From Nemertoderma westbladi (lineage: Eukaryota; Animalia; Xenacoelomorpha): 64,000 nucleotides of DNA. The stretch covers positions 8,542 to 72,541 of the forward strand of contig JAUCBJ010009152.1 in NCBI GenBank assembly GCA_032718475.1. Reading direction: 5' to 3'. Below are positions 2,411-62,489 of this stretch, piece after piece (the first letter of the stretch is position 1; each line of letters begins with the position of its first letter). The notes under the pieces were generated by a model. The model saw nothing but the letters and a program-made list of their open reading frames with translations, was not told the DNA's origin and searched no databases. The translations under genes and the position numbers were made by a program.

Positions 2411-4447
2411 TTTGATATATCATATACTTAAGACATGCTAGGGTGACGGGGAAATATTTGTTACTGTCACACTTTGCTTCCATTTATCCTATCCTTTATT
2501 ATTACCCCAGTCAGATAAGAGATAATAAATCAGTAAAAACTAAACTAAACTGTCTTTCATGCAAACAAATTTCTAACTAAAGACGGGTGAATGACCATGA
2601 CCATGGAAATAATTTTAAATATAATTGTATATCAACTATTTGGGGAGGCTTCCAAGTTAAACCCGAAAACAATTATTTTGTTACATAGTAAATAACGTTG
2701 TATGTTCTTCTTCCTCTCATAATAAAATATAAATGAAATATCTCAGATCGCTATGCCCTGTAACATTTCACAACCAAAATATTTAAGTGTGAAAAGTGTA
2801 GGCCTACCACACTCCGCCCAAACAACCGCAAACGCATAGCCAACAAATTTAACAAAAGGTTACATACATGTTGGGTTCATGACGAGATGAGTGAAAATTG
2901 ATCGCGTAATATAAAGTAAAAAATTAAGAGACGGGCTGGCTCTCCTCCACTTTCTTACCCAATGGATATGTTGTTGTAATAATCTAATTTTGGAGCGGCT
3001 TTCTCTCGGTGGGATAAATATTTCTCCATTTGACGCAACACCGCCGCGGTCGCTATGAGGGAGGTGAATACCGCGGCCGCTCCTAAAGCCGCAGGCCATC
3101 GCTAACTATATAGGTTAACTTGGGATTCTGGGGGACTTTTCGATGAAGGAATTGACCAATTTTTTTTATTTTCGCACCAGGGGAGCGGCTCGGAATTCTA
3201 AGATATTAGCAACTCTAACATTAGCAAATCTATCCCCTCGACGGACACGGCGGACAAAAAACCGTCATTTTTTCGACTTTTTTAAAAAATTTTTGAAAGG
3301 CGCTCTACAGTGGCTCGAAAAAACCCTAGGTTATTGCTTAGCCGACGCCGGGATACGATAGAAGGGATTAATTAGTGAATTCGATTTTTTTTTCAAAAAA
3401 GATTACCACGCCTTTTTCCCGAAATTGTCCGTCAAAGTTGAAAAAACGGACAAAATGGCTTTGCGGGATCCACTCTAACTCGGCTAATATTAATCGTACG
3501 GGGACGAAAGTAACGCGGCTGGAAAGGGGAAGAGTGGTACTACCTTTGTATCGAATGGGGGTAAGATATTTATTAATATTTCGGGTGTAAAAAGGGGCCG
3601 TAACTTTGTCCGTTTTTTCCATATTTTTTACATAATTAATATTTCCAAAATTTTTAATTCGACAACGCTAGTAGGAATCTGCCAATTCTTTTTCGGAAAG
3701 CGTAGAAGACCACAGGGGCTACATTCCTATCGAATGGGGGTACAAAAAATATGTAGGCAAAGGGGTCCAAAAAGGGCCAGAAAATAATAAAAAGTTTATA
3801 ACTATAACAACTTTTTTATTTTAGACTCTAGAAGGTTAAAGTACATTTTATACGGTTAATATCGATACGGGGAATCCAAATATTCGATTGGTTTTGCCGC
3901 GCAAACGATATTAAAAAAATGAGGGCCCAAATTAAAATTTCACGCTTCAAACTCGCTTCGCGGGAACTCGTCTAGCTCGAAAAATACATAAGGTCTGGGA
4001 GACTTATTTAAACAGTCTTATAGAGCGTCAAATTATCTATCTTTCAACGGTAGTTACAACGCCATAGCTATTATATAACTGGAGCGGCAGACGATCGTGT
4101 GAAATATACTACTTATAAAAAAGGGACGAAAAAATTTTTTTTTAATAAATCGCCATTACATTATAATTTAACTTTTTGCGACAAAAGTTCCTGTAAAATG
4201 TAGCAAATTAACTCCACTATCTTTTTTCTTAACATTAATAATTAAAATAACGAGTTTTAAGGGTCGAAAAATATCGTGTAATTTTGGCCCTTTTTTTTCA
4301 TTTTTTTTGGGGCCAAAAGTACCCCCTCTCAAAAGATAGAAAAAAAAAATTACGGCAAAGAATATACCAATTTTATTGAATTTGGAGCACCAGAACCGAA
4401 GTTAGAGCGAATTTAGTCAAAAATTAAAAATATTTTTAAATTAAGAA

Positions 4448-4521
4448 TGGTCAATATTGGGTTTCGAACCCACGAACTTAGGTATCGTTAACGTGATTGA
4501 TAACCACTAGACTACGTGACC
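4448..4521 (-). pseudogene. tRNA-derived (tRNA-like) sequence in 3-kb unit
   Basis: Minus strand GGTCACGTAGTCTAGTGGTTATCAATCACGTTAACGATACCTAAGTTCGTGGGTTCGAAACCCAATATTGACCA: A-box TAGTCTAGTGG, B-box GGTTCGAAACC, T-arm TGGG/CCCA. Confidence 0.62.
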
Positions 4522-7461
4522 AAGAGAATTCGAAATTTTCGAGTGATTATTTTTAAACATCAATAACTTCTGTTCTACAGGACCGTTTGATCTGAAACTT
4601 TTTTCATTGGATAGAGGATAGATTGTAGTGTGTGAAATAGGATACAACTTGGGAAAAGACGCATGTGCACTTAGTGCATAATGCACTTAAAAAGTACACA
4701 TTTTTTCGATATTTTAAACACTGTTATTTCCAGTTCTATTCATCGTAGAATGTTATTTTTTGGATTAAAATGTAGTTTGGAATGATTTCTAACTATAATC
4801 GTAACATTTGTTTAACTTTTTATGTCTATAAAGTGACTTAAAATGTCCATGAATATGGTCCATAATCGCAAATCCAGATTTATTAAATTGGATTTCTGAC
4901 ACTTTTAGCGACTGACACTTGATCATACACCATCGTAGATCGGTAGAGGATAAACATAAGTTTGTTAAATAAGAGCCACCATTACGATCTGCTAAAGTGC
5001 ATTTGTACAAATAAGTGTGCAAAAGTGCAAATTTTTTAATAAGGTCAAATTATATAGTATTGGGTTATTTTCTTTGCAGATACTTTATTTTCATATTAAT
5101 ATATTGTTTGGACCTTACTGAGCGCATTAGGGATAAGTGTACAAATAACCGGCCCTTATGAGTCTTCGATTGGGTAAATTAATAAAACATAAGGTTGTAT
5201 AGTATAATATTCTAAAAACCAGTGTGATATTAAATGCACTTTAAATAATAAATAGAAATCAAATAACAATTGGACCACACAATTAAAAACTCGCACAATT
5301 TTGTACTTATTATATCGCTTCAAATTAATTCAACAGTGGATATTTGGGGGAAGGGGGAAGTTACAGTGTGCATTCGGGGGAAGTTTGGTGAACTGCATTT
5401 ATGCAGTGAATCCAAACTTCCCCCTTTGAGATATCATATACTTAAGACATGCTAGGGTGACGGGGAAATATTTGTTACTGTCACAGTTTGCTTCCATTTA
5501 TCCTATCCTTTATTATTACCCCAGTCAGATAAGAGATAATAAATCAGTAAAAACTAAACTAAACTGTCTTTCATGCAAACAAATTTCTAACTAAAGACGG
5601 GTGAATGACCATGACCATGGAAATAATTTTAAATATAATTGTATATCAACTATTTGGGGAGGCTTCCAAGTTAAACCCGAAAACAATTATTTTGTTACAT
5701 AGTAAATAACGTTGTATGTTCTTCTTCCTCTCATAATAAAATATAAATGAAATATCTCAGATCGCTATGCCCTGTAACATTTCACAACCAAAATATTTAA
5801 GTGTGAAAAGTGTAGGCCTACCACACTCCGCCCAAACAACCGCAAACGCATAGCCAACAAATTTAACAAAAGGTTACATACATGTTGGGTTCATGACGAG
5901 ATGAGTGAAAATTGATCGCGTAATATAAAGTAAAAAATTAAGAGACGGGCTGGCTCTCCTCCACTTTCTTACCCAATGGATATGTTGTTGTAATAATCTA
6001 ATTTTGGAGCGGCTTTCTCTCGGTGGGATAAATATTTCTCCATTTGACGCAACACCGCCGCGGTCGCTATGAGGGAGGTGAATACCGCGGCCGCTCCTAA
6101 AGCCGCAGGCCATCGCTAACTATATAGGTTAACTTGGGATTCTGGGGGACTTTTCGATGAAGGAATTGACCAATTTTTTTTATTTTCGCACCAGGGGAGC
6201 GGCTCGGAATTCTAAGATATTAGCAACTCTAACATTAGCAAATCTATCCCCTCGACGGACACGGCGGACAAAAAACCGTCATTTTTTCGACTTTTTTAAA
6301 AATTTTTTGAAAGGCGCTCTACAGTGGCTCGAAAAAACCCTAGGTTATTGCTTAGCCGACGCCGGGATACGATAGAAGGGATTAATTAGTGAATTCGATT
6401 TTTTTTTCAAAAAAGATTACCACGCCTTTTTCCCGAAATTGTCCGTCAAAGTTGAAAAAACGGACAAAATGGCTTTGCGGGATCCACTCTAACTCGGCTA
6501 ATATTAATCGTACGGGGACGAAAGTAACGCGGCTGGAAAGGGGAAGAGTGGTACTACCTTTGTATCGAATGGGGGTAAGATATTTATTAATATTTCGGGT
6601 GTAAAAAGGGGCCGTAACTTTGTCCGTTTTTTCCATATTTTTTACATAATTAATATTTCCAAAATTTTTAATTCGACAACGCTAGTAGGAATCTGCCAAT
6701 TCTTTTTCGGAAAGCGTAGAAGACCACAGGGGCTACATTCCTATCGAATGGGGGTACAAAAAATATGTAGGCAAAGGGGTCCAAAAAGGGCCAGAAAATA
6801 ATAAAAAGTTTATAACTATAACAACTTTTTTATTTTAGACTCTAGAAGGTTAAAGTACATTTTATACGGTTAATATCGATACGGGGAATCCAAATATTCG
6901 ATTGGTTTTGCCGCGCAAACGATATTAAAAAAATGAGGGCCCAAATTAAAATTTCACGCTTCAAACTCGCTTCGCGGGAACTCGTCTAGCTCGAAAAATA
7001 CATAAGGTCTGGGAGACTTATTTAAACAGTCTTATAGAGCGTCAAATTATCTATCTTTCAACGGTAGTTACAACGCCATAGCTATTATATAACTGGAGCG
7101 GCAGACGATCGTGTGAAATATACTACTTATAAAAAAGGGACGAAAAAATTTTTTTTTAATAAATCGCCATTACATTATAATTTAACTTTTTGCGACAAAA
7201 GTTCCTGTAAAATGTAGCAAATTAACTCCACTATCTTTTTTCTTAACATTAATAATTAAAATAACGAGTTTTAAGGGTCGAAAAATATCGTGTAATTTTG
7301 GCCCTTTTTTTTCATTTTTTTTGGGGCCAAAAGTACCCCCTCTCAAAAGATAGAAAAAAAAAATTACGGCAAAGAATATACCAATTTTATTGAATTTGGA
7401 GCACCAGAACCGAAGTTAGAGCGAATTTAGTCAAAAATTAAAAATATTTTTAAATTAAGAA

Positions 7462-10587: not shown

Positions 10588-11231
10588 CTCGTTCTAACTT
10601 CTGATTGATGGACTCCATATAGGAGTACTGGTTCTAACTGCTGTATGATGGACTCCATATAGGAGTACTGGTTCTAACTGATGTATGATGGACTCCATAT
10701 AGGAGTACTGGTTCTAACTGATGTATGATGGACTCCACATAGGAGTACTGGTTCTAACTTTTGTATGATGGACTCCATATAGGAGTACTGATTCTAACTG
10801 CTGTATGATGGACTCCATATAGGAGTACTGGTTCTAACTTCTGATTGATGGACTCCATAAAGGAGTACTAGTTCTAACTTCTGATTGATGGACTCCATAT
10901 AGGAGTACTGGTTCTAACTGCTGTATGATGGACTCCATATAGGAGTACTGGTTCTAACTTCTCATTGATGGACTCCATATAGGAGTACTGGTTCTAACTT
11001 CCCATTGATGGACTCCATATAGGAGTACTGGTTCTAACTTCTGATTGATGGAATCCATATACGAGTACTGGTTCTAACTGATGTATGATAGACTCCACAT
11101 AGGAGTACTGGTTCTAACTTTTGTATGATGGACTCCATATAGGAGTACTGATTCTAACTGCTGTATGATGGACTCCATATAGGAGTACTGGTTCTAACTT
11201 CTGATTGATGGACTCCATAAAAGAGTACTAG
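10588..11231. repeat. 16 monomers of the 40-bp satellite separating the two 3-kb arrays
   Basis: 10591-11230 is 640 bp, which is 16 x 40 bp of GTTCTAACT(G/T)CTG..GATGGACTCCATATAGGAGTACTG. Confidence 0.97.
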
Positions 11232-20275: not shown

Positions 20276-20467
20276 CTAGTTCTAACTGCTGTATGATGGA
20301 CTCCATATAGGAGTACTGATTCTAACTACTGTATGATAGACTCCATATAGGAGTACTGGTTCTAACTGCTGTATGATGGACTCCATATAGGAGTACTGAT
20401 TCTAACTGCTGTATGATAGACTCCATATAGGAGTACTGGCTCTAACTTCTGATTGATGGACTCCATA
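20276..20467. repeat. ~4.7 monomers of the 40-bp satellite; ends in the left TSD (TCCATA, 20462-20467)
   Basis: Same 40-bp monomer as the main array. Confidence 0.97.
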
Positions 20468-20806
20468 AGTAGTAGGGTCTTGGGCGGCTCTGTGACAGTT
20501 AGACCTCACTGACACCCATTGGGTGTCATATGACACCCAATTATCACCCCATGGGTGTCATTGGGTGTCATTGGCGCCAGACTGTCTGGGTGACACCTCC
20601 CAATTAGGCTAATTAGACCCTAATTGACAGGTGTCATCAATTAATTAGTACAATTAAACCCTAACAGGTATCATTTAGGGTTTAATTGATTATCCTAATT
20701 AATCAGACTGATTAGCGCCCTGACACACAATGGGTCATCAGTGATGTCTAACTGTCACAGAGCCGGCTCAAGAGGGTGTCATAAGTGACACCGCAGCTCT
20801 TTTATT
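20468..20806 (+). repeat. Left terminal inverted repeat (339-bp core)
   Basis: Reverse complement of 29148-29486 with one visible mismatch (CAGGTATCA vs CAGGTGTCA). Degenerate similarity continues inward. Confidence 0.95.
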
Positions 20807-21233
20807 CATTAATACTTATTTATATTTAATTTTAATTAATTATTTGCATTTTATTTTATATTCGTATTTATTCATTTGTACTTTATTTTATATTAATTAT
20901 TCATTTATACTTTATGGGTATACAGCTCCCTTACTGGTAACTAATTACTCTTATCTATATCCAGACAGCTTTTTCGTTGACCTTTGACCTTTGACCCCTC
21001 AATTAGCTTTAACCAAGCAACAGCATATTAATGATAGTTGTATCCAAGCGCCCCTGCCCCCCACCCCGTGACAGCTCTGATTACTAATTACTCTTACATA
21101 TATCCAACCGCCTGCAGTTCCATAGTCTGCCGCTAGAGGGCGTATTATCTGAAAATTAACATCTTCTCTAACTTTGTTATTTTTCAATTTAACTATTTAT
21201 ATATCCAGGCAGCCCCTATCATAACAACCAGGG

Positions 21234-21285
21234 ACCGGCAGGACACATGGAAACGATTTTATTACTATGAAATACATTGAAATAT
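21234..21285 (-). pseudogene. Short duplicated fragment of the TBP-like gene 3' end
   Basis: CCGGCAGGACACATGGAAACGATTTTATTACTATGAAATACATTGAAATAT closely matches ~22343-22393 and encodes YFNVFHSNKIVSMCPAG. Confidence 0.8.
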
Positions 21286-21774
21286 ATTCTCACATTAACT
21301 CCCAAGGTTGCATACTATCACTATAGCTGGGAGAGTCAAAGCTAGAGTGTATGCTAGAGTTATCCAAGAGCTAGGAAAAAGAATAATGCTCTTCTAGGGT
21401 CCAAACTCACATCCATCCAATTAGAGAACTAAGCAAATGACCAGCTTGAAGGCCTTAGACCCTTAATCTGAGGCATCGAGCAGCCAATGAGAGAGCAGAT
21501 GTGAGTACAGTGGTAAAGCCCACCCATGGTGAGATAACGTCACACTAACTCTCAAGGATAGTTATACTCACCGTTCAAATATCCCTCGCAAACCAGTTTC
21601 CCCCCAACATCTAAAGTAATCCACTTCAATGTAAAATATATAATGCAATATAACTCGAATATTTCTGTTTTTATAATATAAATAATAATTGTAACATAAA
21701 TTTATAATTTAACACAAATATAAGGTGAAAATTCACTTTAACATAGAGTAACTAAACTAAACATAAAATAGGAT

Positions 21775-22230
21775 AAAAACAGATGGTCATACTGTAGGCT
21801 CAATCCCTACTCGTGTCCGTTTTATGAAAAATATAAAAAGTAAACATAGAATAACTAGAGTACCTAAACTAAACACAAAATAGGAAAAACAGAAGGTCAC
21901 GGGCTCAATCCCTACTCGTATCCCGTTTTATGGAAAATAAACAGGAGGTCATAGGTTCAATCCCTACTCGCGACCATTATAAATCCAACACGAAATAAGT
22001 TAAACCAGGGTTCGAATCCTAATCATGAAAATATAAAAAGTAAACATAGAATAACTAGAGTAACTAAACTAGACATAAATTAGGAAAAACAGAAGGTCAG
22101 GGGTTCAATCCCTACTCGCGACCATTATAAAACCAACACAAAATAAGTTAAACCAGGGTTCGAGTCCTACTAATGCAATTATAAAAAGTAGGTAACACGG
22201 ATGGTCACGGATTCAAACCCTACTCACGGA
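21775..22230 (+). repeat. Cluster of seven tRNA T-arm/B-box-like motifs in degenerate direct repeats
   Basis: GTAGGCTCAATCCCTAC, GGGCTCAATCCC, ATAGGTTCAATCCCTACTCGCGACCA, GGGTTCGAATCCT, GGGGTTCAATCCCTACTCGCGACCA, GGGTTCGAGTCCT and GGATTCAAACCC, compared with the B-box consensus GGTTCRANTCC. Confidence 0.7.
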
Positions 22231-22293
22231 AAAATAAAAACCAACACAAAATAAATAATATAGTAAACTTTCATGTATACCATAGTAAATAAT

Positions 22294-22809
22294 CTAATTT
22301 AATAATAAAGTTTGTAAAATAGATAATGATTCGGGGAATTCACCGGCTGGACACATGGAAACGATTTTATTACTATGAAATACACTGAAATATGCACGTC
22401 CTATATATATTCTAATCGCGCAAAATAATTCGGGGGTATAGCTAATAAATATTGCTTTATTATTAATTGTATGATGTCCACATTTTTTCATTAATAATTT
22501 AAAATTAACACTTGGAAAAATAATAGTTTGTGTTTCGGTATTAAGTTTCAAATTTTGTAATTGCATACCAATAGTTTGTTTTAAATAAAGCAATTCACTA
22601 GCTAAATTATTGCAAAGGCCTACAATTGTTACTGCGCCGCTGGGAAATAGCATTATAGTTGAATCGTCACCTTTGTAGATAAACATGTTTGGTTTTAAGC
22701 AACTTTGACCTGTAGTTTGCTGTGAAATTTTCTCTAGTTCAAATTTGGCAATGTTTTTTCCGGTAAACTGTTTATTGGTTATTTCTATTTTGTAGCTCAA
22801 TTTCTTATT
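22294..22809 (-). CDS. Divergent TATA-binding protein (TBP)-like protein; no ATG at the 5' end, probably a spliced 3' exon
   Basis: ~170 aa with two TBP-like repeats. STIMLFPSGAVTIVG resembles TBP TTALIFSSGKMVCTG, and SYTPELFCAIRIY...FSVFHSNKIV resembles SYEPELFPGLIYR...LLIFVSGKVV. The ORF-track start is a TTG, preceded by the acceptor-like TTTAATTTTTCTAG (AG at 22811-22810). Confidence 0.72.
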   Translation of the reverse strand, partial: NKKLSYKIEITNKQFTGKNIAKFELEKISQQTTGQSCLKPNMFIYKGDDSTIMLFPSGAVTIVGLCNNLASELLYLKQTIGMQLQNLKLNTETQTIIFPSVNFKLLMKKCGHHTINNKAIFISYTPELFCAIRIYIGRAYFSVFHSNKIVSMCPAGEFPESLSILQTLLLN

Positions 22810-22823
22810 CTAGAAAAATTAAA

Positions 22824-25800
22824 TTAAATCCTAGTAGGGGGGATTACTACTCGTTTCGCCGGTCTAACAAGCTTAGTGCTATAGTGCCCGTATGGTTTGC
22901 TGCTATATTTACTACTCCAATATGATTTCGTATCCCAGAGCGTTAGTGCCTTCTTATAGACATGACCAGTAAAAATTTGATGCTTACTAGAAGTGAAGGT
23001 AGAGTTATAGCGGAAGAGCATTGCCTCGTTTACAAAACAGTCTGCATAATCCTCGTGTGTTAGTTGCTTAGCGACAACCGATCTAGATACACCTTTGGCG
23101 GTTTTCTTGATTGGGGCATCATAGGATTGAAAACTGTAGACCTTTGGTTTAAGGAAAACCCACTGTTTATACTGCAAACCGCAGCTCTCATCTTTTATGA
23201 AGCCGAGAGCCGCTTTGTGTTTAATGGTATAGAGTGGATGTGTTGTACTGTAGTTGGAAGTATCTAGGAAACCACCCTCAAACATTGCCCGTAGAAAGGT
23301 TAGCTGTGGTGTATTAGTTACGCTTAGCATTAGAGAATCCGTGTCACCGGCTAGACAGCGAATCTGGCAACCCAGTTTTTGTTCTAGAGGCTTCAGTTTG
23401 TTGTAAAATAGGTCGTACATCTGTAGCTTAGATAGATCTAGTATAGTGCAACCGATGAACACGCCCTGATTTAGGCAAACAGCCTCTTTAGTGAAAGTAT
23501 GACCACTCAAGTTGGGGGTAAATACAACAAACGATTCGTGATTGGGCTTGGCTAAGAGCAAATCGCATTGTTCGTCGCTATTGCATAACCTGAAAGAAAC
23601 GCGGTCTCTAACCTTTTGGAGGCATTTCCCATACAAGGCATTGTTCATCAACTTATAAAATAGGACCTCGAATGGGTTATTTGCCGACTGTCTTTTATTG
23701 GTATTAAAACTAATGTAGTCCTTGAAAATATATTTTTGTGAGAAAGAGTAGACCCTATGTACTTGTGTAAGTTTAAGACCGAGCTTCAAATAGAGTTGAA
23801 GTAGCTTAATATGGATACCGTATTCAACCTTATTAAACTGATGTAGTAGTAGCTTAGTACAGGTATCGTTGTATGGTCTACAGGTGGCCGTATCGGTGAG
23901 ATTGTAATGCTCCCAAAGATCTTCCATGTATTCGCTAAGAAAGGATTTAGGGACTGACATCTTCTCCGCTCCTAGAGGCAGATCGGCGGTCAAATCATGA
24001 ATTTCTTTCGGGTAATGTAGATCAACTATGCAATAATAACCAGTATCCCCACTCGCGTCTACTGTAGCTAGGTCTATGGGGGTAGTTACGAGTTTAATAT
24101 TAGCGTAGGGAAGTTTCTGGCTCAGGGCGCAGCCGTAAAGGTTATTCGCATCGATGGGAATTAGATATTTCTCGGGGAGACTGGAGTCATAGTCGGGTTT
24201 ATCGGGAATATTTGCGTCTACGGAATGTGTATTCAAGAATACTAGACCACCCCTAATATTTGTTTCAAAGTCCGAGTAGATGGAAGCGTCTGATAGTAAT
24301 TGAATTTCTGATTGCGTGAATTTCAGCGCCGCGTCGTAAGTTAATCCAGGGGCAGTGAAGTACATTACGGGCTCGAGTCCATAATTAGTAAGACAGAGGG
24401 ATCGGAACTGCTCGAAAGTATCAGCCAATAGGGTAACATCTAGAACCAAATAGCCAATCATATAGTCAAAGATTGTTGCGCAGTTTAATTCATCCCAAGT
24501 AGTAAGCGCGCGCTGATAGTTTTCTGCGCTACATTGTTCCAATTTGAGATCATTATAGAAGCTTTCTAATGGGGGGAGTGTAGTTTCGTGTAGGTTTGAA
24601 ATATTTTGAATGTAGGAATATGGGAATACACCCTTGTTTTTTATTGTGTTATCGCTAATGTTGGGATAGAGTTGGGTCATTTGAGCTAGTGTATGGGGTA
24701 TGGCTGTTGCTAGGTTACTGTTATTTTTAGTGAGATAACTACTAAGATTATCTAGGCTGGCAGTCATAAACTGATAGGAATCTAGAAAATTAATGGAGAT
24801 ACTTTCTTTAGCGTTGGCTGTTGGTGTACTCGGATCGATTGGGAAGCTAACTTTAAGGTGAATATAAGTTTCGGTGTTTTTTGGTATTACGGTCATTTTC
24901 CAGTGTGTTCTAGAACTATCGGTCATTCCTTCTTTTAGTAGTAAATGCATATCGAATTTCCTCAGGTTATGAAATATAATATAAAAATTATTCCGTTTTA
25001 GGGAAAGTTTCCTGTTGCAGCTGACGCAAGCAGCCCCCCGATACTCCCCGCTATAATGATCGTGATCGCGGACTTTGGTGCTGAGATTGTCATTGAGGTT
25101 TAAATTATGAGAATCGGGGGTTAAATTACAGTTGCAGACGTAGCATTGTGTAGCGTTATTAAAGTCAGTTTGTTGGCTAGTAGTGAGTTGCATGGGGGCG
25201 TGCGTGTTTGTACTAGAAATGGACCAATCGTATAACTCCCTACAATGACTTTCCATAGCGGTTAGAAAGTCGCGCATTACGTGGTTACTGCCATCGTCGC
25301 GGAAAATTTGAACATCTGTTTTAGGAGGGTTAATTAATTTCTGATTTGGTACTGTATAAAAGGCTGCCGCGCTAGCTATATGTTTCTGTGGGAGTTTAAT
25401 ATTGTTTGTAGGTTCTAGAATAGTTTCAATGTCGGCGTATATACAGAAAGGTGGGGATAGAGTCTTATCGTACCTATCAAATTTAACCAAGAGATTTTCG
25501 GGCATATACTCGAGTTGGCGTTTACCCGTATAGCACCGCTCTCGATGTTCTTCCAATGATTTGTCAGTGTAAAAGGCTCTGAGACAGCGTTCGCAGTGCG
25601 TCTTGTTGCCTTTAGAAGTAGCTTTAGTATTTATTAATCTATCTATGTTAGTAATAGCTACGTAGTGGGCGGGGTTTTTGCTTGTGGCTTCGATAAATAA
25701 TAAGTTTAGTACAGTTTTACCGGAACAGTGCGCGCTATCTGGTTGACTTAGGATGGAGAGTTCTTCCGTATTACTCCAATAAAGAAGGTTTATGCAGTAT

Positions 25801-26879
25801 ATAGGGTTGGCTTTCAGAAACTGGGGAATACCAGTTACTCTGTCCACCGGAAAACTTAAATTCGAAAAATCAAACATGTTTAGGAAAGGAGTATAGGTTG
25901 AAATTCTTTTGATATTATTTTGTTTTCTATCAATTTTCTTATAATTTGCGGCGGCCAAAACTGCGTATTTAAAGCATTCCCCCAGCGGGCAGTCTACGCT
26001 TACGGTACATTTTTTATTTAATAATAATTTAGAATTATTGAACCCTTGACCCTTTAAATAGGGGTTGCGTTGGGACCGCACAATCTCAATAGTTATTCGC
26101 TCGATGGCTATTATGCGCCAACCCGAGCCGAGACAGAGAAACACGCTTAACAGTTGATCGATACGATTGACGGCGCCAGAAAACCAGTTATTAAAGTCGC
26201 TATTATTCAGAATTTGATTATTGTTACCGCTAGATTTAAAACAGAATGATTCAATTTGAAATCCCTCGCTGGTTTCACGCTCCATTACGATGTTGATTGT
26301 AAGCCAGACTCTTAAAAAAGTTCCCATGGCACTACGTAAATGGCTACTAACGTGTTCGTGAATGTGTGGAAAATTTTCATTTAATGTTAATTCTGCGTCG
26401 AGTCTTGTTTCTGTGAGGTCGTTGTTATAGGTAAACAGTCGTCCGTGTGCGCTTCCGTTAGAGGGTGGTTGAAATGGATTGTTTGGGGAAATAGAATCTC
26501 GCGAAGTTGAAGGTTCGTTATTGGAGCCGCCGCCGCCGACTTGTTCTGGAGTAGAGTTGATGGGGGATGAGTGTGAGGTAGTCGGAGTTTTGCGTTTCCG
26601 CGAAAAAAGTCGAGTATAGCATTCATGCTCAGTAAAGGAAGATAGGGTGAGCGAATCCCCGCAGCGGCAATCGGCTGGCTCGTTTACGTAACTAAATCCT
26701 GTTCCCCCCTGAGGACACGAAACAAGATGGCCAACCAGCGTCTTCTTTTCCGAAGACCAAGTCGGACAGCAGTCGCATCTATATTGCGCGAAATGAGTTT
26801 TAATATGACGAGATAAATTATCACTCCGCGTCTCTTTGTTGCAGATGGGGCAGCTAACTTTATTGCTAGACATAGGCAT
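22824..26879 (-). CDS. polB: Protein-primed family B DNA polymerase (Polinton/adintovirus type), 1351 aa, intact
   Basis: ExoI YADIE, ExoII FHNLRKFD, KGVFPY, ExoIII YLVLDV, IRGG, motif A DANNLYG, motif B KLMNNALYGK, motif C GDTDS and KVY. It also has an endonuclease VII-like HNH insert (CYVC...RDHDH...GAACVSCN), a TP-like region ending GSGW, vOTU-like CFKYAV...HYV and N-terminal zinc fingers. Confidence 0.96.
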   Translation of the reverse strand: MPMSSNKVSCPICNKETRSDNLSRHIKTHFAQYRCDCCPTWSSEKKTLVGHLVSCPQGGTGFSYVNEPADCRCGDSLTLSSFTEHECYTRLFSRKRKTPTTSHSSPINSTPEQVGGGGSNNEPSTSRDSISPNNPFQPPSNGSAHGRLFTYNNDLTETRLDAELTLNENFPHIHEHVSSHLRSAMGTFLRVWLTINIVMERETSEGFQIESFCFKSSGNNNQILNNSDFNNWFSGAVNRIDQLLSVFLCLGSGWRIIAIERITIEIVRSQRNPYLKGQGFNNSKLLLNKKCTVSVDCPLGECFKYAVLAAANYKKIDRKQNNIKRISTYTPFLNMFDFSNLSFPVDRVTGIPQFLKANPIYCINLLYWSNTEELSILSQPDSAHCSGKTVLNLLFIEATSKNPAHYVAITNIDRLINTKATSKGNKTHCERCLRAFYTDKSLEEHRERCYTGKRQLEYMPENLLVKFDRYDKTLSPPFCIYADIETILEPTNNIKLPQKHIASAAAFYTVPNQKLINPPKTDVQIFRDDGSNHVMRDFLTAMESHCRELYDWSISSTNTHAPMQLTTSQQTDFNNATQCYVCNCNLTPDSHNLNLNDNLSTKVRDHDHYSGEYRGAACVSCNRKLSLKRNNFYIIFHNLRKFDMHLLLKEGMTDSSRTHWKMTVIPKNTETYIHLKVSFPIDPSTPTANAKESISINFLDSYQFMTASLDNLSSYLTKNNSNLATAIPHTLAQMTQLYPNISDNTIKNKGVFPYSYIQNISNLHETTLPPLESFYNDLKLEQCSAENYQRALTTWDELNCATIFDYMIGYLVLDVTLLADTFEQFRSLCLTNYGLEPVMYFTAPGLTYDAALKFTQSEIQLLSDASIYSDFETNIRGGLVFLNTHSVDANIPDKPDYDSSLPEKYLIPIDANNLYGCALSQKLPYANIKLVTTPIDLATVDASGDTGYYCIVDLHYPKEIHDLTADLPLGAEKMSVPKSFLSEYMEDLWEHYNLTDTATCRPYNDTCTKLLLHQFNKVEYGIHIKLLQLYLKLGLKLTQVHRVYSFSQKYIFKDYISFNTNKRQSANNPFEVLFYKLMNNALYGKCLQKVRDRVSFRLCNSDEQCDLLLAKPNHESFVVFTPNLSGHTFTKEAVCLNQGVFIGCTILDLSKLQMYDLFYNKLKPLEQKLGCQIRCLAGDTDSLMLSVTNTPQLTFLRAMFEGGFLDTSNYSTTHPLYTIKHKAALGFIKDESCGLQYKQWVFLKPKVYSFQSYDAPIKKTAKGVSRSVVAKQLTHEDYADCFVNEAMLFRYNSTFTSSKHQIFTGHVYKKALTLWDTKSYWSSKYSSKPYGHYSTKLVRPAKRVVIPPTRI

Positions 26880-27400
26880 CTTGAATCTAGAAAAATAAGT
26901 TGATTATTCATAAAAAAATAAAAAATACTGTATACTTGCTAAAAATAAGGTAAAACAGTAGGTATTAATCGGTTACTAGGCAACAATACTGTGTTTGTAC
27001 AGTTAGGCCTATTGCTGTATTGTAGCATTCAGGCAGTGAAACATAAAGCAGACAGTCAGCAGTGTCTAGTGTAGTAGTGTTAGTGTACCAGCGGTCAGAT
27101 AGTGGCGATAACCAAGACACAATAGCGATGGCAGTTATTATTCGTGGAAAGAGGGTCTATAAACAGCAGTCAGTCAGTGCAGTAGTGCTAGTGAAATAGT
27201 CTGCCAGAAGTCAGACGTACCGGTAGCGTTAACCAATAGAAATCAACGATAGGCTTAGCTAATCGCTGTGTGAGAACTCAGTTAGTCAGTAGGATATATA
27301 ATGAAAACTGCAGTATTCAGTGTTGTTCAGTAGGGTCTATATCGCTACTATGATGGCATTAGGCTAACTCGAATGATCCGGTAGCGCTAGTTGGGTAGAC

Positions 27401-28212
27401 AAGCAGATAGACAGATGTAGGCCTATTGATCGAATGCTTCGATCACGGTTTAGGCTATCGGTACCACCACAGTCTGACAGTAATTAATAATGAGCCTACT
27501 GCAATACTGTTGTACCGGTAGACATTAAATGTAAATTGTTTGCTAGCGGCATCGATAGTACAGTCAGATGGTGGAAGGGAAGGCAGATTTTACTTACGGT
27601 GTTAGTAAATATTCACGGAAAGAAGAAGTTTGGAAGTTTGTTGGCGATGAGGAAGTTGGTTGACGTGGACGACGAGAGAGTTTATTAACCGATAGAACGG
27701 AATGGTATCGGAAATTAGAAATAATGGAATATTACGCGACGAATACGCGGAAAGTTTGTTGTCGACAATGAGCGTTAACGCGGCGAAATTACACTAGAAA
27801 AATAAGTTGATTATTTGTAAAAAGATAAAAAATACAGTAAGCAGATAGGCGGATGTAAGCCTATTGATCGAATGCTTCGATCACGGTTTAGGCTATCGGT
27901 ACCACCGCAGTCTGACAGTAATTAATAATGAGCTTACTGCAATACTGTTGTACCGGTAGACATTAAATGTAAATTGTTTGCTAGCGGCATCGATAGTACC
28001 GTCAGATGGTGTAAGGCAGATTTTACTTACGGTGTTAGTAAATATTCACGGAAAGAAGAAGTTTGGAAGTTTGTTGGCGATGAGGAAGTTGGTTGACGTG
28101 GACGACGAGAGAGTTTATTTACCGATAGAAGGGAATGGTATCGGAAGAATATTACGCGACGGATACACGGAAAGTTTGTTGTCGACGATGAATGATAACG
28201 CGGCGAAATGAC
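27401..28212 (-). repeat. ~390-bp direct repeat pair (27401-27792 and 27839-28212) containing putative non-coding leader exons
   Basis: Near-identical copies. On the minus strand each has a donor ACC|GTAAGT (28030 and 27597). The acceptor AACTTATTTTTCTAG occurs at 27794 and again at 26887, 7 nt before the polB ATG. Confidence 0.75.
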
Positions 28213-28259
28213 AATAATACAACTCTACAAGTGGGTTGTTGATCGATGATAACAAATAA

Positions 28260-28460
28260 ATATTCTTAAATAAATAATATTAAATTCGAAAACAAAATAA
28301 TGGTAAATGATGTTAATCGTAACTTGCAATTGAAATAATGACCTAATATATTAGTGGGGATGTATTAAATAGCAATTCGGTTAGTAGGGGAGGCCCTTGT
28401 CTCTTAAATGAGCCAATCAGAGCGCAGCAGCAGAAATGACGCCCGCTGATTGGCTGTTCG
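28260..28460 (-). promoter_or_regulatory. Putative Pol II promoter of the element (paired CCAAT boxes, AT-rich TATA-like region)
   Basis: AGCCAATCAG (28411-28420) and its exact inverse CTGATTGGCT (28446-28455) flank TGACG. TATTTAAG lies on the minus strand at ~28265-28272, just upstream of the putative leader exon. Confidence 0.5.
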
Positions 28461-29147
28461 CGCAAAAGCGGTTACCAGGGCAACTTCTCGTGTTGATTCT
28501 ATATTAGAAAACTCTTGTAAGCATCTTGACTAATTATGTTGAGTTGGTTGTATAACAGAAGCAGGTCTGGTGCAAAGGAAAGGGATTAGTAGAGAGGAAT
28601 GCGTGATTAGTGGCGCTTCATTGTTATGATAGGGGCTGCCTGGATATAGGAAAGGGACAAAGCGACGCCGGCTATAGTGGGAACAATGGAGGGCCGCTTG
28701 AGCATTAGCCTTGGGCGATATACGGATTTGTTGTAGTCAAGGCCGCCTGGCGCCATTGAATAATGAAGACAAAGGGGCTGCTAACAGACGGGACCGCTCA
28801 TTTATATTTGCCTTGGGGGTATACGTGTAGATTCACTGCCTGTTGTATCTAGTTAATGAATAATGAGGACAGAGGAGGGGCCCCCCGCCGATGAACGCAG
28901 TTGATAGTTGCCAGTAGGGAGCCGTATACCATAGCCATTATAAAGTTAAAAATAGATATTATGTCATAGTGATCTCGTTGGTAATATAAAAACTAATTAA
29001 TCTAAAAATAGAAATCAATGTATAAAGTTTATACAATTAATTAATTTAAAATAAAGTACAAATGAATAATTAATTTAAAATTAAATACAAATAAAATAAA
29101 ATACAAATAATTAATTAAAATTAAATATAAATAAATAGGTATTAATA

Positions 29148-29486
29148 AATAAAAGAGCTGCGGTGTCACTTATGACACCCTCTTGAGCCGGCTCTGTGAC
29201 AGTTAGACATCACTGATGACCCATTGTGTGTCAGGGCGCTAATCAGTCTGATTAATTAGGATAATCAATTAAACCCTAAATGACACCTGTTAGGGTTTAA
29301 TTGTACTAATTAATTGATGACACCTGTCAATTAGGGTCTAATTAGCCTAATTGGGAGGTGTCACCCAGACAGTCTGGCGCCAATGACACCCAATGACACC
29401 CATGGGGTGATAATTGGGTGTCATATGACACCCAATGGGTGTCAGTGAGGTCTAACTGTCACAGAGCCGCCCAAGACCCTACTACT
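29148..29486 (-). repeat. Right terminal inverted repeat (339-bp core)
   Basis: Reverse complement of 20468-20806; ends CCCTACTACT, followed by the TSD TCCATA. Confidence 0.95.
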
Positions 29487-32400
29487 TCCATATAGGAGTA
29501 CTGGTTCTAACTGATGTATGATGGACTCCATATAGGAGTACTGGTTCTAACTTCTGTATGATGGACTCCATATAGGAGTACTGGTTCTAACTTCTGATTG
29601 ATGGACTCCATATAGGAGTACTGGTTCTAACTGCTGTATGATGGACTCCATATAGGAGTACTGGTTCTAACTTCTGTATTGATGGAATCCATATAGGAGT
29701 ACTGGTTCTAACTTCTGATTGATGGACTCCATAAAGGAGTACTGGTTCTAACTTCTGATTGATGGACACAATATAGGAGTACTGGTCCTATATAGGTGTA
29801 CTGATTCTAACTGCTGTATGGTGGACTCCATATAGAAGTACTGGATCTGACTGCTGTATGATGGACTCCATATAGGAGTACTGGTTCTATCTGCTGTATG
29901 ATGGACTCCATATAGGAAGGAGTACTGGTTCTAACTGCTGTATGATGGACTCCATATAGGAGTACTGGTTCTAACTTATGACTGATGGACTGACTCCATA
30001 TAGGAGTACTGGTTCTAACTTCTGATTGATGGACTCCATATAGGAGTACTGGTTCTAACTGATGTATGATGGACTCCATATAGGAGTACTGGTTCTAACT
30101 GCTGTATGATGGAATCCATATAGGAATACTGGTTCCTGGTTCTATCTGCTGATTGATGCTCCATATAGGAGTACTGGTTCTAACTGCTGTATGATGGACT
30201 CCATATAGGAGTACTGGTTCTAACAGCTGTATGATGGACTCCATATAGGAGTACTGGTTCTAACTGCTGTATGATGGACTCCATATAGGAGTACTGGTTC
30301 TAACTGCTGTATGATGGACTCCATATTGGAGTACTGGTTCTAACTTCTGATTCTGATTGATGGACTCCATATAGGAGTACTGGTTCTAACTGCTGTATGA
30401 TGGACTCCATATAGGAGTACTGGTTCTAACTGCTGTATGATGGACTCCATATAGGAGTACTGGTTCTAACTGCTGATTGATGGACTCCATATAGGAGTAC
30501 TGGTTCTAACTGCTGATTGATGGACTCCATAAAGGAGTACTGGTTCTAACTGCTGATTGAGGAGTACTGGTTCTAATTACTGTATGATGGACTCCATAAA
30601 GGAGTACTGGTTCTAACTTCTGATTGATAGACTCCATATAGGAGTACTGGTTCTCACTGCTGATTGATGAACTCCATATAGGAGTACTGATTCTAACTGC
30701 TGTATGATGGACTCCATATAGGAGTACTGGTTCTAACTGCTGTATGATGGACTCCATATAGGAGTACTGGTTCTAACTGCTGCATGATGGACTCCATATA
30801 GAAGTACTGGTTCTAACTGCTGTATGATGGACTCCATATAGGAGTACTGATTCTAACTGCTGTATGATGGACTCCATATATGAGTTCTAACTGCTGTATG
30901 ATGGACTCCATATAGGAGTACTGGTTCTAACTTTTGTATGATGGACTCCATGTAGGAGTACTGATTCTAACTGCTGTATGATGGACTCCATATAGGAGTA
31001 CTGGTTCTAACTTCTGATTGATGGACTCCATATAGGAGTACTGGTTCTAACTTCTGATTGATGGACTCCATATAGGAGTACTGGTTCTAACTGCTGTATG
31101 ATGGACTCCATATAGGAGTACTGGTTCTAACTGCTGTATGATGGACTCCATATAGGAGTACTGGTTCTAACTGCTGTATGATGGAATCCATATAGGAGTA
31201 CTGGTTCCTGGTTCTATCTTCTGATTGATGCTCCATATAGGAGTACTGGTTCTAACTGCTGTATGATGGACTCCATATAGGAGTACTGGTTCTAACTGCT
31301 GTATGATGGACTCCATATTGGAGTACTGGTTCTAACTTCTGATTCTAATTGATGGACTCCATATAGGAGTACTGGTTCTAACTGCTGTATGATGGACTCC
31401 ATATAGGAGTACTGGTTCTAACTGCTGTATGATGGACTCCATATAGGAGTGGACTCCATATAGGAGTACTGGTTCTAACTTCTGATTGATGGACTCCATA
31501 AAGGAGTACTGGTTCTAACTGCTGATTGAGGAGTACTGGTTCTAACTACTGTATGATAGACTCCATAAAGGAGTACTGGTTCTAACTTCTGATTGATGGA
31601 GTACTGGTTCTAACTGCTGATTGATGAACTCCATATAGGAGTACTGATTCTAACTGCTGTATGATGGACTCCATATAGGAGTACTGGTTCTAACTGCTGT
31701 ATGATGGACTCCATATAGGAGTACTGATTCTAACTGCTGTTTGATGGACTCCATATAGGAGTACTGGTTCTAACTGCTGTATGATGGACTCCATATAGGA
31801 GTACTGGTTCTAACTGCTGTATGATGGACTCCATATAGGAGTACTGGTTCTAACTTCTGATTGATGGACTCCATAAAGGAGTACTAGTTCTAACTTCTGA
31901 TTGATGGACTCCATATAGGAGTACTGGTTCTAACTGCTGTATGATGGACTCCATATAGGAGTACTGGTTCTAACTTCTGATTGATGGAATCCATATAGGA
32001 GTACTGGTTCTAACTTATGATTGATGGATTCCATAAAGGAGTACTGGTTCTAACTTCTGATTGATGGACTCCATATAGGAGTACTGGTCCTATATAGGTG
32101 TACTGATTCTAACTGCTGTATGATGGTCTCCATATAGAAGTACTGGTTCTGACTGCTGTATGATGGACTCCATATTGGAGTACTGGTTCTATCTGCTGTA
32201 TGATGGACTCCATATAGGAAGGAGTACTGGTTCTAACTGCTGTATGATGGACTCCATATAGGAGTACTGGTTCTAACTTATGATTGATGGACTGACTCCA
32301 TATAGGAGTACTGGTTCTAACTTCTGATTGATAGACTCCATATAGGAGTACTGGTTCTAACTGCTGTATGATGGACTCCATATAGGAGTACTGGTTCTAA

Positions 32401-59695: not shown

Positions 59696-61023
59696 TTATC
59701 CACTTCCCAACACGTTCTTCAGGACTATCGGCTTTGAAGCGCCCCTTTGCACAACTTTTCCGACCAGATACCTCATTTACAGTTTACCAGGTAAGTTTTG
59801 ATTGTTGCTGTATGTGAGCAGTTGTAATTGCTTCAGTTTTATCCTGTATGTACTTTTCCTGGCTAATGTTGTAGGACAATTTAAGATCGTCCTTAGCTTT
59901 CTCGACCTTGTTAATGTTTTCGGTTTTTGGTTGTTCGGTTTTAACTTTGTAGTCGCACATACTGTTTTCGTTTGGGTTTCTGGGGGATATGCCTCTTAGC
60001 TGATTCCTTGTGGGCTGTTACTATATTCTGGTATATTGAATATATGGTAGAAGTTCAAAACCGCTTTGAAGCACTTATCCACCAATTCAATATACCTGTG
60101 ACGGGATCCGAGCGGTGTGGTTTATTTACGCGTCCCCGCCGCCAGTGATTGTTATCGTTCCGAAATTGTTAATGGATATATATAAATGAACTGAGTAAAC
60201 ACATAGCACAGTTGATGGTGAACTGAGTAAATGGTAATATAATTGGTGATGGTGGCGGCGACGGTTATAAAATGTCACCGTACTGCCCTGACTGAGTGAC
60301 TGAGTAAACTAATTGTGTTTCGGAATGTCCTTTATAAGTCCAGTCAGTTCTTCATAAAACTTGACTGCTTGTTCTGGCTCTGAGGCATTGGGTGGACTGT
60401 AGCAACATATAACTGTTGCCTTGGGATTCCCATCAAATGTTGTGATCATAACCCTGGAATTTATAGATTCGATGTTGTTTAGAGTCTTAAGTGCAAATAG
60501 GCTTGGCAGAATTCCTACTCCACCAATTGATGCATTGGCCGAGTTTCTTACTGCTGAGCTTGTTACTAACGTCCATCTATTTCCAATGTCATTGTACTTC
60601 ATGGCAGTTGGTTGATTACCTTCCGCCGACCTTGTCAGCATGTCTAGCCGTTGGTTGATTACCTTCCGCCTATCCTCCATGGCCTACAGCCCTGCTGCCA
60701 ACTGTAGGGGTCCATTTGTTACACCCTGAACCAAGTGTGCCCCCTGGGTTAGGTTACTGGTAGAGGAGTATCCAGTATAGACAGGGGGGGCGTGTATCAT
60801 CTCTAATGCAGATGCGTATCAAGCCTTTGCCTTCAATGGTGCCCTAGGCGCTATAGCCCTCAATGACTTATTTAGTTGACAGGGTTAAACCAACCCACTC
60901 TTGATCAACTAAATAATGAATAGGCTATGCTTATCGGGCCTGCCCTACTGGGCTGGCAGCTACAGGTAGTACCACATTACTGCCATAGTGGTAGCAGGAT
61001 CTGGGGACCTGACCTGACCTGAT
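59696..61023 (-). mobile_element. Decayed RTE/RTEX-like non-LTR retrotransposon fragment (5' region, APE endonuclease remnant, post-endonuclease linker; no RT)
   Basis: ORF 60309-60680 has GGVGIL...ESINSRVMITTFDGNPKATVICCYSPPN...FYEEL...IPKHN, typical of the RTE APE domain. My translation of ~59700-59920 (minus) gives ...QEKYIQDKTEAITTAHIQQQSKLTW*TVNEVSGRKS...KADSPEERVGKW, a typical linker with an in-frame stop. Confidence 0.75.
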
Positions 61024-61640
61024 ATGTATGATGGACTCCATATAGGAGTACTGGTTCCAACTTCTGATTGATGGACTCCATATAGGAGTACTGGTTCTAA
61101 CTGCTGTATGGTGGACTCCATATAGGAAGGAGTACTGGTTCTAACTGCTGTATGATGGACTCCATATAGGAGTACAGGTTCTAACTTCTGATTGATGGAC
61201 TCCATATAGGAGTACTGGTTCTAACTTCTGATTGATGGACTCCATATAGGAGTATTGGTTCTAACTGCTGTATGATGGACTCCATATAGGAGTACTGGTT
61301 CTAACTGCTGTATGAAGGACTCCATATAGTACTGGTTCTATCTTCTGTATGAAGGACTCCATATAGTACTGGTTCTATCTTCTGTATGATGGACTCCATA
61401 TAGTACTGGTTCTAACTGCTGTATGATGGACTCCATATAGTACTGGTTCTATCTTCTGTATGAAGGACTCTATATAGTACTGGTTCTAACTGCTGTATGA
61501 TGGACTTCATATAGTACTGGTTCTATCTTCTGTATGAAGGACTCCATATAGTACTGGTTCTATCTTCTGTATGATGGACTCCATATAGTACTGGTTCTAT
61601 CTTCTGTATGAAGGACTCCATATAGTACTGGTTCTATCTT
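61024..61640. repeat. Satellite (40-bp monomers, switching to 37-bp at ~61320)
   Basis: Tandem monomers. Confidence 0.96.
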
Positions 61641-62489
61641 TTTTTTTTTTTTTTACTCAAAAGCCTCCATATATTATAATATTAACAAACAATAATTCGA
61701 ATATAAAAACGCACCAAAACAAGTACAAATATAACCCACCACCAGCTGATTCAAACTGTTACCTAGCAACAATACAAACAATACAAATTGGTTCAGTACC
61801 CATCACCAGTCTGCCACTCTGCCACTGCCAGTACCCAACAAACCCGCCAGACCTCTAACTTCTAAGCCGTCCTGGGGTCCGAGTCCGCGTTTGCCCACAC
61901 AATGGACGCGTCCGCCACTGCTGCCCGCACCGGTCTTCTAGCAGCCGACCGAAACCCACGGAGGCACATCAGGGACGACCGGAGTAAGGCGAAGTTGATG
62001 CGTCGCCGCACCCACGCTACCGACTCCGGGTAGGGAACCCGTCGTTTCTCCGACAGCCTCAATGCCAGCCGCTTCACAAACTGCTTCGCAGCCGGCGCCA
62101 TGCCCCCGAAAGCGGAAAATATGAGGGGGGTGAAGGTTGAGTGCTCAACCTCACGGATCCGCTCCTCGTATCTCCGGATCTTCCTCGCCTCGTGATGGAG
62201 GTGGGCGGCATCCAGCGACATCGCTGCGTTGGTGTCCGCCAGCGGGTTGAACACCGACACGTCGATAAACATCTTCTGGAAGCGGTTGCCCCAGAATCTG
62301 CTTACCGACACGTCGAGTCTCGCCTGCTGGTCCGTCGAGGTGGACCGGAGAGTGAAGGACTCCCCCGTCAGCGGCTGGAGCATCGGCTCGACAGCCACGT
62401 TGTGGGCCACCTCAGTCAGGGAGTCGGCGACGAAATCGCGGATCTTGTTGTGTCTGATTGAGGGGAACCCCCCAGTGGGACACGACAGA
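61641..62489 (-). mobile_element. 5'-truncated CRE-clade non-LTR retrotransposon with poly(A) tail and 12-14-bp TSD
   Basis: Poly-T on + at 61639-61654. ACTGGTTCTATCTT is duplicated at 61627-61640 and 62490-62503. The interior is GC-rich and coding. Confidence 0.88.
61862..62488 (-). pseudogene. C-terminal restriction-like (PD-(D/E)xK) endonuclease domain of a CRE-type ORF, 5'-truncated but uninterrupted
   Basis: LSCPTGG...RHNKIRD...EP...RLDV...FWG...FIDVSVF...HEARKIRRY...FTPLIFSAFGGM...CLRG. The apparent N-terminus MESFIQKIEPV is translated satellite. Confidence 0.85.

Follow-up and report, generated by a model that had tools for sequence, protein, structure and literature searches.

What does a homologue of the TATA-binding protein (TBP) do in a mobile element that carries only one other sizeable gene? 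The 64-kb window (the whole stretch of DNA analysed here) contains a Maverick/Polinton-derived element in which only two ORFs exceed 100 codons, one encoding a protein-primed DNA polymerase B (pPolB) and the other a TBP-like protein. The explanation that we favor, at roughly even odds and from sequence features, is that a spliced TBP of altered specificity would recruit host Pol II to the element promoters of a helper-dependent Maverick derivative. The features on which the argument draws are collected in Table 1.

Table 1. Features of the element and its borders, in window coordinates
Feature	Position	Strand	Remarks
Target-site duplication TCCATA, left copy	20462..20467	+	6 bp; inside 40-bp satellite
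Left terminal inverted repeat	20467..20915	+	379 bp at 97%; 449 bp at 94% including AT-rich part
Maverick/Polinton-derived element	20468..29486		9,019 bp; ends AGTAGTAGGG...CCCTACTACT (AG..CT)
CTCF-like site	21113..21142	+	core and upstream motif; pattern written after the sequence was seen
Second copy of TBP C-lobe piece	21234..21285	minus	52 bp, 96%; adjoins 28-bp inverted copy of right-arm 28621-28648; rearrangement scar
Seven Pol III B-box-like motifs, three perfect	21797..22220	+	short repeated units just past the TBP stop; no tRNA
TBP-like coding frame	22294..22809	minus	171 codons stop-to-stop; no ATG before residue 42
Predicted splice acceptor ending TTTTTCTAG	22810..22823	minus	14 nt between pPolB stop and first TBP codon; phase 0
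pPolB	22824..26879	minus	1351 aa, intact; N-terminal C2H2 finger, EndoVII-like insert
Predicted acceptor TTTTTCTAG	26887..26895	minus	7 nt before pPolB ATG
Predicted non-coding leader exon B	27598..27793	minus	acceptor 27794, donor GTAAGT 27597; no ATG; within 438-bp tandem duplication
Predicted non-coding leader exon A	28031..28380	minus	donor GTAAGT 28030; no ATG in 350 nt
Predicted promoter	28400..28470	minus	motif matches only, which we take to be E2F-like 28467, CCAAT 28453 and 28417, CRE half-site 28441 and non-canonical TTAAGA 28407
Right terminal inverted repeat	29022..29487	minus
Target-site duplication, right copy	29487..29492	+	6 bp

The element and the satellite around it

Mavericks and Polintons have AG..CT ends and generate a 6-bp target duplication, and the borders of the element follow this rule. 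Four DNA-type sequencing runs from one organism (X1–X4) contain the stretch, and the empty-site joint 20461–29487 is present in run X1. The pPolB matches PF03175 with an E-value of 2.3e-18 and has 104 relatives at 26–40% identity, the best-scoring of which lie at 33–35%; in its first 277 amino acids Pfam detects C2H2 fingers only and no OTU domain. Together with the long inverted repeats, the ends and the duplication, this polymerase bears out the claim of a first-pass annotation that the TBP gene is carried by an element of the Polinton/Maverick type. GC3 is 0.23 in the TBP gene (22297–22809) and 0.42 in pPolB (22827–26879), which suggests separate origins of the two.

Neither ORF nor Pfam searches of the element revealed an integrase, packaging ATPase, adenain protease, hexon or penton, and comparison with 1115 ORFs from related loci disclosed no remnant of them in the arms. 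Measured against the gene list for complete Mavericks and adintoviruses in section 3.1 of PMC8502044, the part of that source used here, the element has the pPolB, the inverted repeats, the ends and the duplication and is without the integrase and the particle genes. Because it combines Maverick ends and a polymerase with an incomplete gene set, we file it as a helper-dependent derivative. Adintoviruses and animal Mavericks-Polintons, as portrayed in part of PMC8502044, share with it a pPolB of the pfam03175 type, inverted terminal repeats and integration into the host; the element differs from them in its length of 9 kb, in the absence of integrase, packaging ATPase, adenain, hexon, penton and a Pfam-visible OTU domain, and in a TBP gene that has no start codon. 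Its own polymerase and missing integrase and particle genes lead us to propose that integration would be supplied by a helper copy, a step suggested by the clean 6-bp duplication.

The surrounding 40-bp satellite occupies 10591–11229, 20280–20474, 29487–59693 and 61025–64000; its main array holds about 740 copies and shifts to a 37-bp variant at the right end. The window's copy of the element sits in the CATATAG loop of this satellite, a position in keeping with the idea that the TBP-like protein binds the loop and steers insertion there. We consider such targeting highly improbable. Satellite makes up about half of the window, CATATAG does not conform to the TATAWAW consensus of a TATA box, and the element has no integrase to steer. 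Moreover, beyond the element end at 29486 two X4 contigs carry DNA other than satellite, so copies also insert elsewhere.

Other repeats fill much of the remaining window. Positions 1–20280 consist of a tandem repeat with a 3-kb unit, of which an 8.8-kb block is present twice at 99.5%; a minus-strand B-box-like motif is found in most of the units, and neither Rfam nor tRNA searches gave a match in this repeat. Two inserts lie within the satellite. The one at 61640–62488 ends in poly(T) and contains a minus-strand ORF of 219 codons that has no Pfam match and looks like a non-LTR retrotransposon's C-terminal end, and the other, at about 59700–61020, contains an ORF of 123 codons.

Homology and residues of the TBP-like protein

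An open frame as long as the TBP-like frame was reached in none of 20,000 composition shuffles. Among 24,736 Pfam families, TBP (PF00352) is its sole match, in two stretches and with an E-value of 4.7e-4; the score of 20.4 bits lies below the curated cut-off of 22.9. The two lobes also match separately, with E-values against Pfam TBP of 0.037 for the N-half alone (first 83 residues) and 0.0095 for the 130-amino-acid C-terminal part alone, whose match falls within the C-lobe. A lobe profile built from 135 giant-virus TBPs, with the query left out, scored the C-half at 1.4e-6 and the N-half at 1.5e-3, levels reached by 0 and 3 of 1000 shuffles, respectively. In the ESM Atlas, TBP clusters lie at 0.95 with 205–214 of 256 features in common, and the unnamed neighbors are giant-virus clusters at 0.91–0.92; the recognition value of 1783 is under the 2300 level, which makes this line of evidence weak when taken alone. 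Two AlphaFold models, with pLDDT of 31.5 and 35.8, were too poor for use, and fold searches with them gave no meaningful match; a single-sequence AlphaFold model of low confidence has strands and then a helix, twice, as in the lobes of TBP.

Close relatives of the TBP-like protein did not emerge from the collections searched, which contain few animal genomes. A word-indexed search for close homologues yielded no matches from 43 candidates, none of 26 and none of 392 candidates held up in scans of viral and metagenome contigs, the PDB sequence search returned nothing significant, and NCBIfam and PHROGs returned nothing below an E-value of 0.1. The sole phmmer match over 1.84 billion representatives was a bacterial-type protein with 17 repeats, which we rejected as an artefact. 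Judged from its sequence, the frame running from 22809 to 22294 is a real, distant and strongly remodelled TBP homologue, and the earlier description of a divergent homologue with two TBP-like repeats agrees with the single family match and the separate matches of the lobes.

We placed the protein on yeast TBP by way of a viral TBP and took the list of DNA contacts from part of PMC12529657. LFPSG occupies residues 54–58 in the N-lobe and YTPELF residues 124–129 in the C-lobe, which reads VFHSN in place of FxSG. The LFxSG and YxPELF motifs that had been reported are both present, one per lobe rather than both in each; the erosion attributed to the first repeat is real but extends to both lobes, which are eroded in complementary ways. 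The intercalating phenylalanines had been described as partly kept, and three of the four positions are indeed retained: F55, F129 and F144 align with yeast F116, F190 and F207. The aromatic residue at L5.1 of both lobes (yeast F116 and F207), a signature taken from part of PMC7221094, is accordingly present as F55 and F144. P40 falls at the place of yeast F99, an apparent loss in a hand alignment of a shortened and poorly aligned stretch, which leaves the protein with three of the four phenylalanines that characterize a canonical eukaryotic TBP. N12 may correspond to yeast N69, again by hand alignment in a poorly aligned stretch. Yeast L189 and V213 are also retained, and substitutions are found at P191 (to Cys), L205 (to Ser), T215 (to Met), L114 (to Met), V122 (to Thr) and T124 (to Val). 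In yeast TBP, L205 influences TATA specificity.

The surfaces that contact protein partners are altered as well. The TFIIB contacts in the C-lobe stirrup read T125 and E127, one of the two acidic residues of a canonical TBP. Helix 2 of the N-lobe is about five residues shorter and has one Lys, and the basic patch for TFIIA, TAF1, BTAF1/Mot1 and Brf1 is absent. By alignment, then, the protein is non-canonical and fits the pattern of viral TBPs, with DNA contacts kept and partner surfaces lost; viral TBPs retain the DNA-binding positions and lose the regulator and TFIIB signatures (PMC7221094, in part). TBPs of this kind occur in several families of large DNA viruses, as the first-pass annotation states, and have in common with the protein described here two lobes, an L5.1 Phe in both and diverged signatures for regulators and TFIIB (PMC7221094 and PMC11410667, each in part). 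The giant-virus TBPs that we compared are 23–26% identical to it and are therefore not close relatives. The dsDNA viruses that bear TBPs are large and many have their own TFIIB, whereas this element encodes neither TFIIB nor RNA polymerase.

Three phenylalanines, a basic computed pI of 9.3 and a half-lost TFIIB surface make up a profile of DNA binding with poor recruitment. Such a protein could serve as a decoy, sitting on host TATA boxes or titrating TFIIB/Brf or the regulators of TBP, and thereby dampen host transcription. We regard a role of this kind as improbable: the basic N-lobe patch to which host regulators bind (PMC7221094, in part) is shortened and lost, which is wrong for a sponge, and a gene toxic to the host would be hard to retain in a multicopy resident element.

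If the protein instead recruits host Pol II to the element's promoters, as we favor and as the first-pass annotation had offered among its options, the alignment offers a rationale. Three phenylalanines are kept, and F99, P191, L205, one TFIIB glutamate and the basic N-lobe helix are changed or shortened; the altered saddle would still bend minor-groove DNA, would prefer a word other than TATAAA and would escape host TBP regulators. Herpesvirus ORF24 provides a comparison, being likewise a TBP-like viral protein that has no full pair of TFIIB glutamates and has Ser at yeast L205 (PMC12529657, in part). According to the same part of that source, this TBP mimic of beta- and gammaherpesviruses reads a non-canonical box, and ORF24 of KSHV, with Ser at L205, activates viral promoters without the TFIIB glutamates. 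ORF24, as described there, possesses all four Phe and both Asn, is 752 amino acids long, contains Pol II-binding and extra DNA-binding domains and belongs to a six-protein complex, whereas the protein considered here is a bare 171 amino acids with three Phe and no Pol II-recruiting domains; this difference counts against our explanation. If it does read a private box with host Pol II, it would rank as a viral activator of the TBP type much smaller than the herpesvirus protein and would reveal which TBP contacts are dispensable.

A missing start codon and a predicted transcription unit

The frame had been presented as an ORF of about 170 amino acids, but its first ATG is located only at residue 42, so it does not stand alone as an ORF. 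Residues 1–66 match TBP with an E-value of 0.03 and residues 42–66 give no match, which indicates that the part upstream of the first ATG is coding. For this reason we rejected the 130-amino-acid, ATG-initiated form as the full protein, since it loses TBP-homologous residues. Readthrough from pPolB was rejected as well, because several stops lie upstream in the TBP frame. The missing ATG suggests that ATG-based annotation would overlook such genes and that Maverick TBPs may be under-counted.

The first base of the frame directly follows TTTTTCTAG. This nine-letter motif has three occurrences when both strands of the 64-kb window are counted, at 27794, 26887 and 22810, all on the minus strand of the element, where 0.1 occurrences would be expected. 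The copies at 27794 and 26887 stem from one duplication, so the three represent two independent cases only. The leader regions contain no ATG, compared with 3.8 and 1.9 expected, and coding leader exons were rejected in view of this absence and of the lack of a Pfam match.

From these signals we infer one transcription unit in which non-coding leaders and alternative acceptors would serve both pPolB and TBP. Transcription would begin at the right-arm promoter and pass through the ATG-free leader exons, which the sequence signals suggest are joined to the acceptor ahead of pPolB; an additional splicing step, predicted from the same kind of signal and using the 22810 acceptor, would give rise to the TBP message. 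Translation of TBP could start in a short in-frame piece of the pPolB 5' end or at a non-AUG codon. Phase-0 GT sites in pPolB follow codons 7, 48, 176 and others. Two findings count against the splice model: none of the phase-0 donors in the 5' part of pPolB is strong, and the TBP acceptor ranks 13th among 439 AG sites by a simple pyrimidine score. The 15 read joints listed, out of 42 in these DNA-type runs, include no canonical splice. We considered the X4 joint 22809–22987 as an intron and rejected it, as it is one base off GT-AG and fits a 6-bp microhomology deletion.

In the E2 unit of adenoviruses, replication genes are reached from non-coding leaders by alternative acceptors, and the E2 promoter contains E2F, ATF/CRE and CCAAT motifs and a TTAAGA box. 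The element resembles this unit in its leaders, alternative acceptors and promoter motifs, with the reservation that splicing here is predicted only. To our knowledge, adenoviruses encode no TBP and do not integrate. We would guess from the motif match that the spliced TBP acts on the TTAAGA box of the element itself and on promoters in complete helper copies. Against recruitment of Pol II stands the observation that a private TBP would have neither late genes nor an element-encoded TFIIB to serve. With one predicted promoter, two arms and one small protein, the element isolates the question of how Maverick transcription is controlled.

A different role is conceivable for a protein that accompanies a polymerase, namely that it bends the AT-rich inner parts of the terminal repeats and thereby helps the polymerase to start. 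This would explain co-expression with pPolB in an element that only replicates. The TBP gene is the only companion of pPolB and belongs to the same predicted unit, TATAWAW matches lie in the AT-rich left arm (20824–20909), and the loss of one TFIIB glutamate is compatible with such a task. In adenoviruses, the host proteins NFI and Oct-1 aid the start of the polymerase at the origin. We nevertheless think this role unlikely. The search around the 104 related pPolB loci, though of limited sensitivity, found no TBP beside them, which argues that this class of polymerase needs none; a derivative described below keeps TBP without an active polymerase; and we know of no precedent for a TBP at a protein-primed origin.

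Neighboring genes, copies and retention of the TBP gene

The neighborhood of related polymerases was surveyed in three ways. Home-made profiles found no TBP in 7,676 frames beside the 104 pPolB loci, Pfam TBP was absent from the 139 frames searched out of 702 of 110–320 amino acids near pPolB loci, and a family search was negative in the 6 searchable records out of 50. At least 700 nt downstream of pPolB are available in only 69 of the 104 loci. Because flanks are limited and the window's own TBP-like protein is borderline in such searches, this absence is weak; within that sensitivity, it accords with the earlier statement that TBP is not a core Polinton gene. Conversely, no pPolB was found beside 32 viral TBP loci. 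Cargo near related pPolB genes included a matrixin-type metallopeptidase (E 3e-35; L098:1027–1779, minus strand) and a TET/JBP-like oxygenase (E 3e-7; L016:5874–6749, minus strand).

A TBP has been listed among the genes of MELD viruses with an adintovirus-like PolB, in a figure legend only (Starrett et al. 2021, PMC8502044). In the text of that article the term "TBP" appears once, its function is not discussed, and one supplementary file has no mention of it. Our literature searches found no functional study of a Polinton TBP. A Polinton TBP is hence not without precedent, having been named in that 2021 legend. The novelty lies in an element with two genes, in a TBP frame that has no start codon and follows an acceptor motif shared with pPolB, and in the retention of this gene in a derivative deleted for the polymerase.

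The sequencing runs provide a view of other copies. In X1 the interior of the element has a depth of 3,700–7,300, against 14–37 for contigs of minor variants, which points to a multicopy family, with the caveat that depth is no copy number. The variants listed number 40 of 454, and 19 of those listed fall in pPolB. Between this copy and the runs, 12 of these 19 are synonymous where the neutral share is 0.27 (P 9e-4), and pPolB is under purifying selection among copies. None of the 40 listed variants (of 454) falls in the TBP gene, compared with about 2.2 expected, a difference that is not significant, and the 12 indels listed out of 61 include none in either ORF. In X3, the main copies show 1 difference in 225 bp of the TBP gene at a depth of 2034. 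Older, decayed TBP copies exist, as illustrated by an X1 contig in which the segment 22156–22406 shows 28 differences and 2 gaps. A derivative joint, 22816–26046, is found in runs X1 and X4, which come from two studies; most of pPolB is lost across it, and what survives includes the TBP gene with its acceptor and the first ~277 pPolB codons.

These copies bear on the possibility that the gene is a passenger, a TBP that served late promoters in a complete parent Maverick and is jobless in the deleted derivative. Its frame would then be intact only through the youth of the family and its adjacency to pPolB, and the absence of an ATG could reflect damage. Neither integrase nor capsid genes are left to regulate, the main copies are near-identical over the TBP gene in X3, and the left arm bears rearrangement scars. 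Three observations are harder to reconcile with such idleness: the frame begins exactly at an acceptor motif common to pPolB, the derivative retains TBP though pPolB is mostly lost, and an AT-rich frame of 171 codons would close fast. We treat the passenger explanation as possible but doubtful.

In X1 and X3, read depth over the arms (20707–21627 and 28689–29302) exceeds that of the interior several-fold, a hint that many more elements share these ends and differ inside. One could imagine a divided Maverick in which this element takes care of replication and transcription, with the polymerase and the spliced TBP acting in trans on partners that share its repeats and carry the integrase and particle genes; we offer this tentatively and give it a minor chance. 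Drosophila Vesanto virus likewise has a PolB on a small unit with inverted terminal repeats (bioRxiv 10.1101/2020.10.16.342956, in part). In the same part of that source, Vesanto virus is an exogenous, segmented, bidna-like virus with segments of 3.3–5.8 kb and terminal repeats shared among the units, whereas the element described here is integrated with a 6-bp duplication and is known as a single unit. Should the divided arrangement hold true, it would constitute a minimal orthogonal system of promoter recognition, made up of one 171-residue protein and host Pol II, with no viral TFIIB.

Coverage in X4 has a different profile. Over 20400–29600, the satellite ends are read to a depth of 143–183, compared with 48,000–546,000 in X1 and X3. 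Coverage in X4 peaks in the leader region and almost vanishes in the middle of pPolB. This run may represent a different type of library or a population dominated by deleted copies.

Two further features lie in the left part of the element. The B-box motifs at 21797–22220 lie in tandem-duplicated, tRNA-like 3' halves that have no A-box and face the end of the TBP gene. We rejected tRNA or known RNA genes in this region, for which there was no match; the units may be remnants of SINEs, act as TFIIIC barriers or form small Pol III units. The core of the CTCF-like site at 21113–21142 is the only core match in the window, and this patch is joined to other sequence in many read contigs. The nine upstream letters and the 5-nt spacing of the site match binding sites given in part of bioRxiv 10.1101/2023.12.05.569896, and the predicted site, which would point to a bilaterian host, may insulate the element from satellite chromatin.
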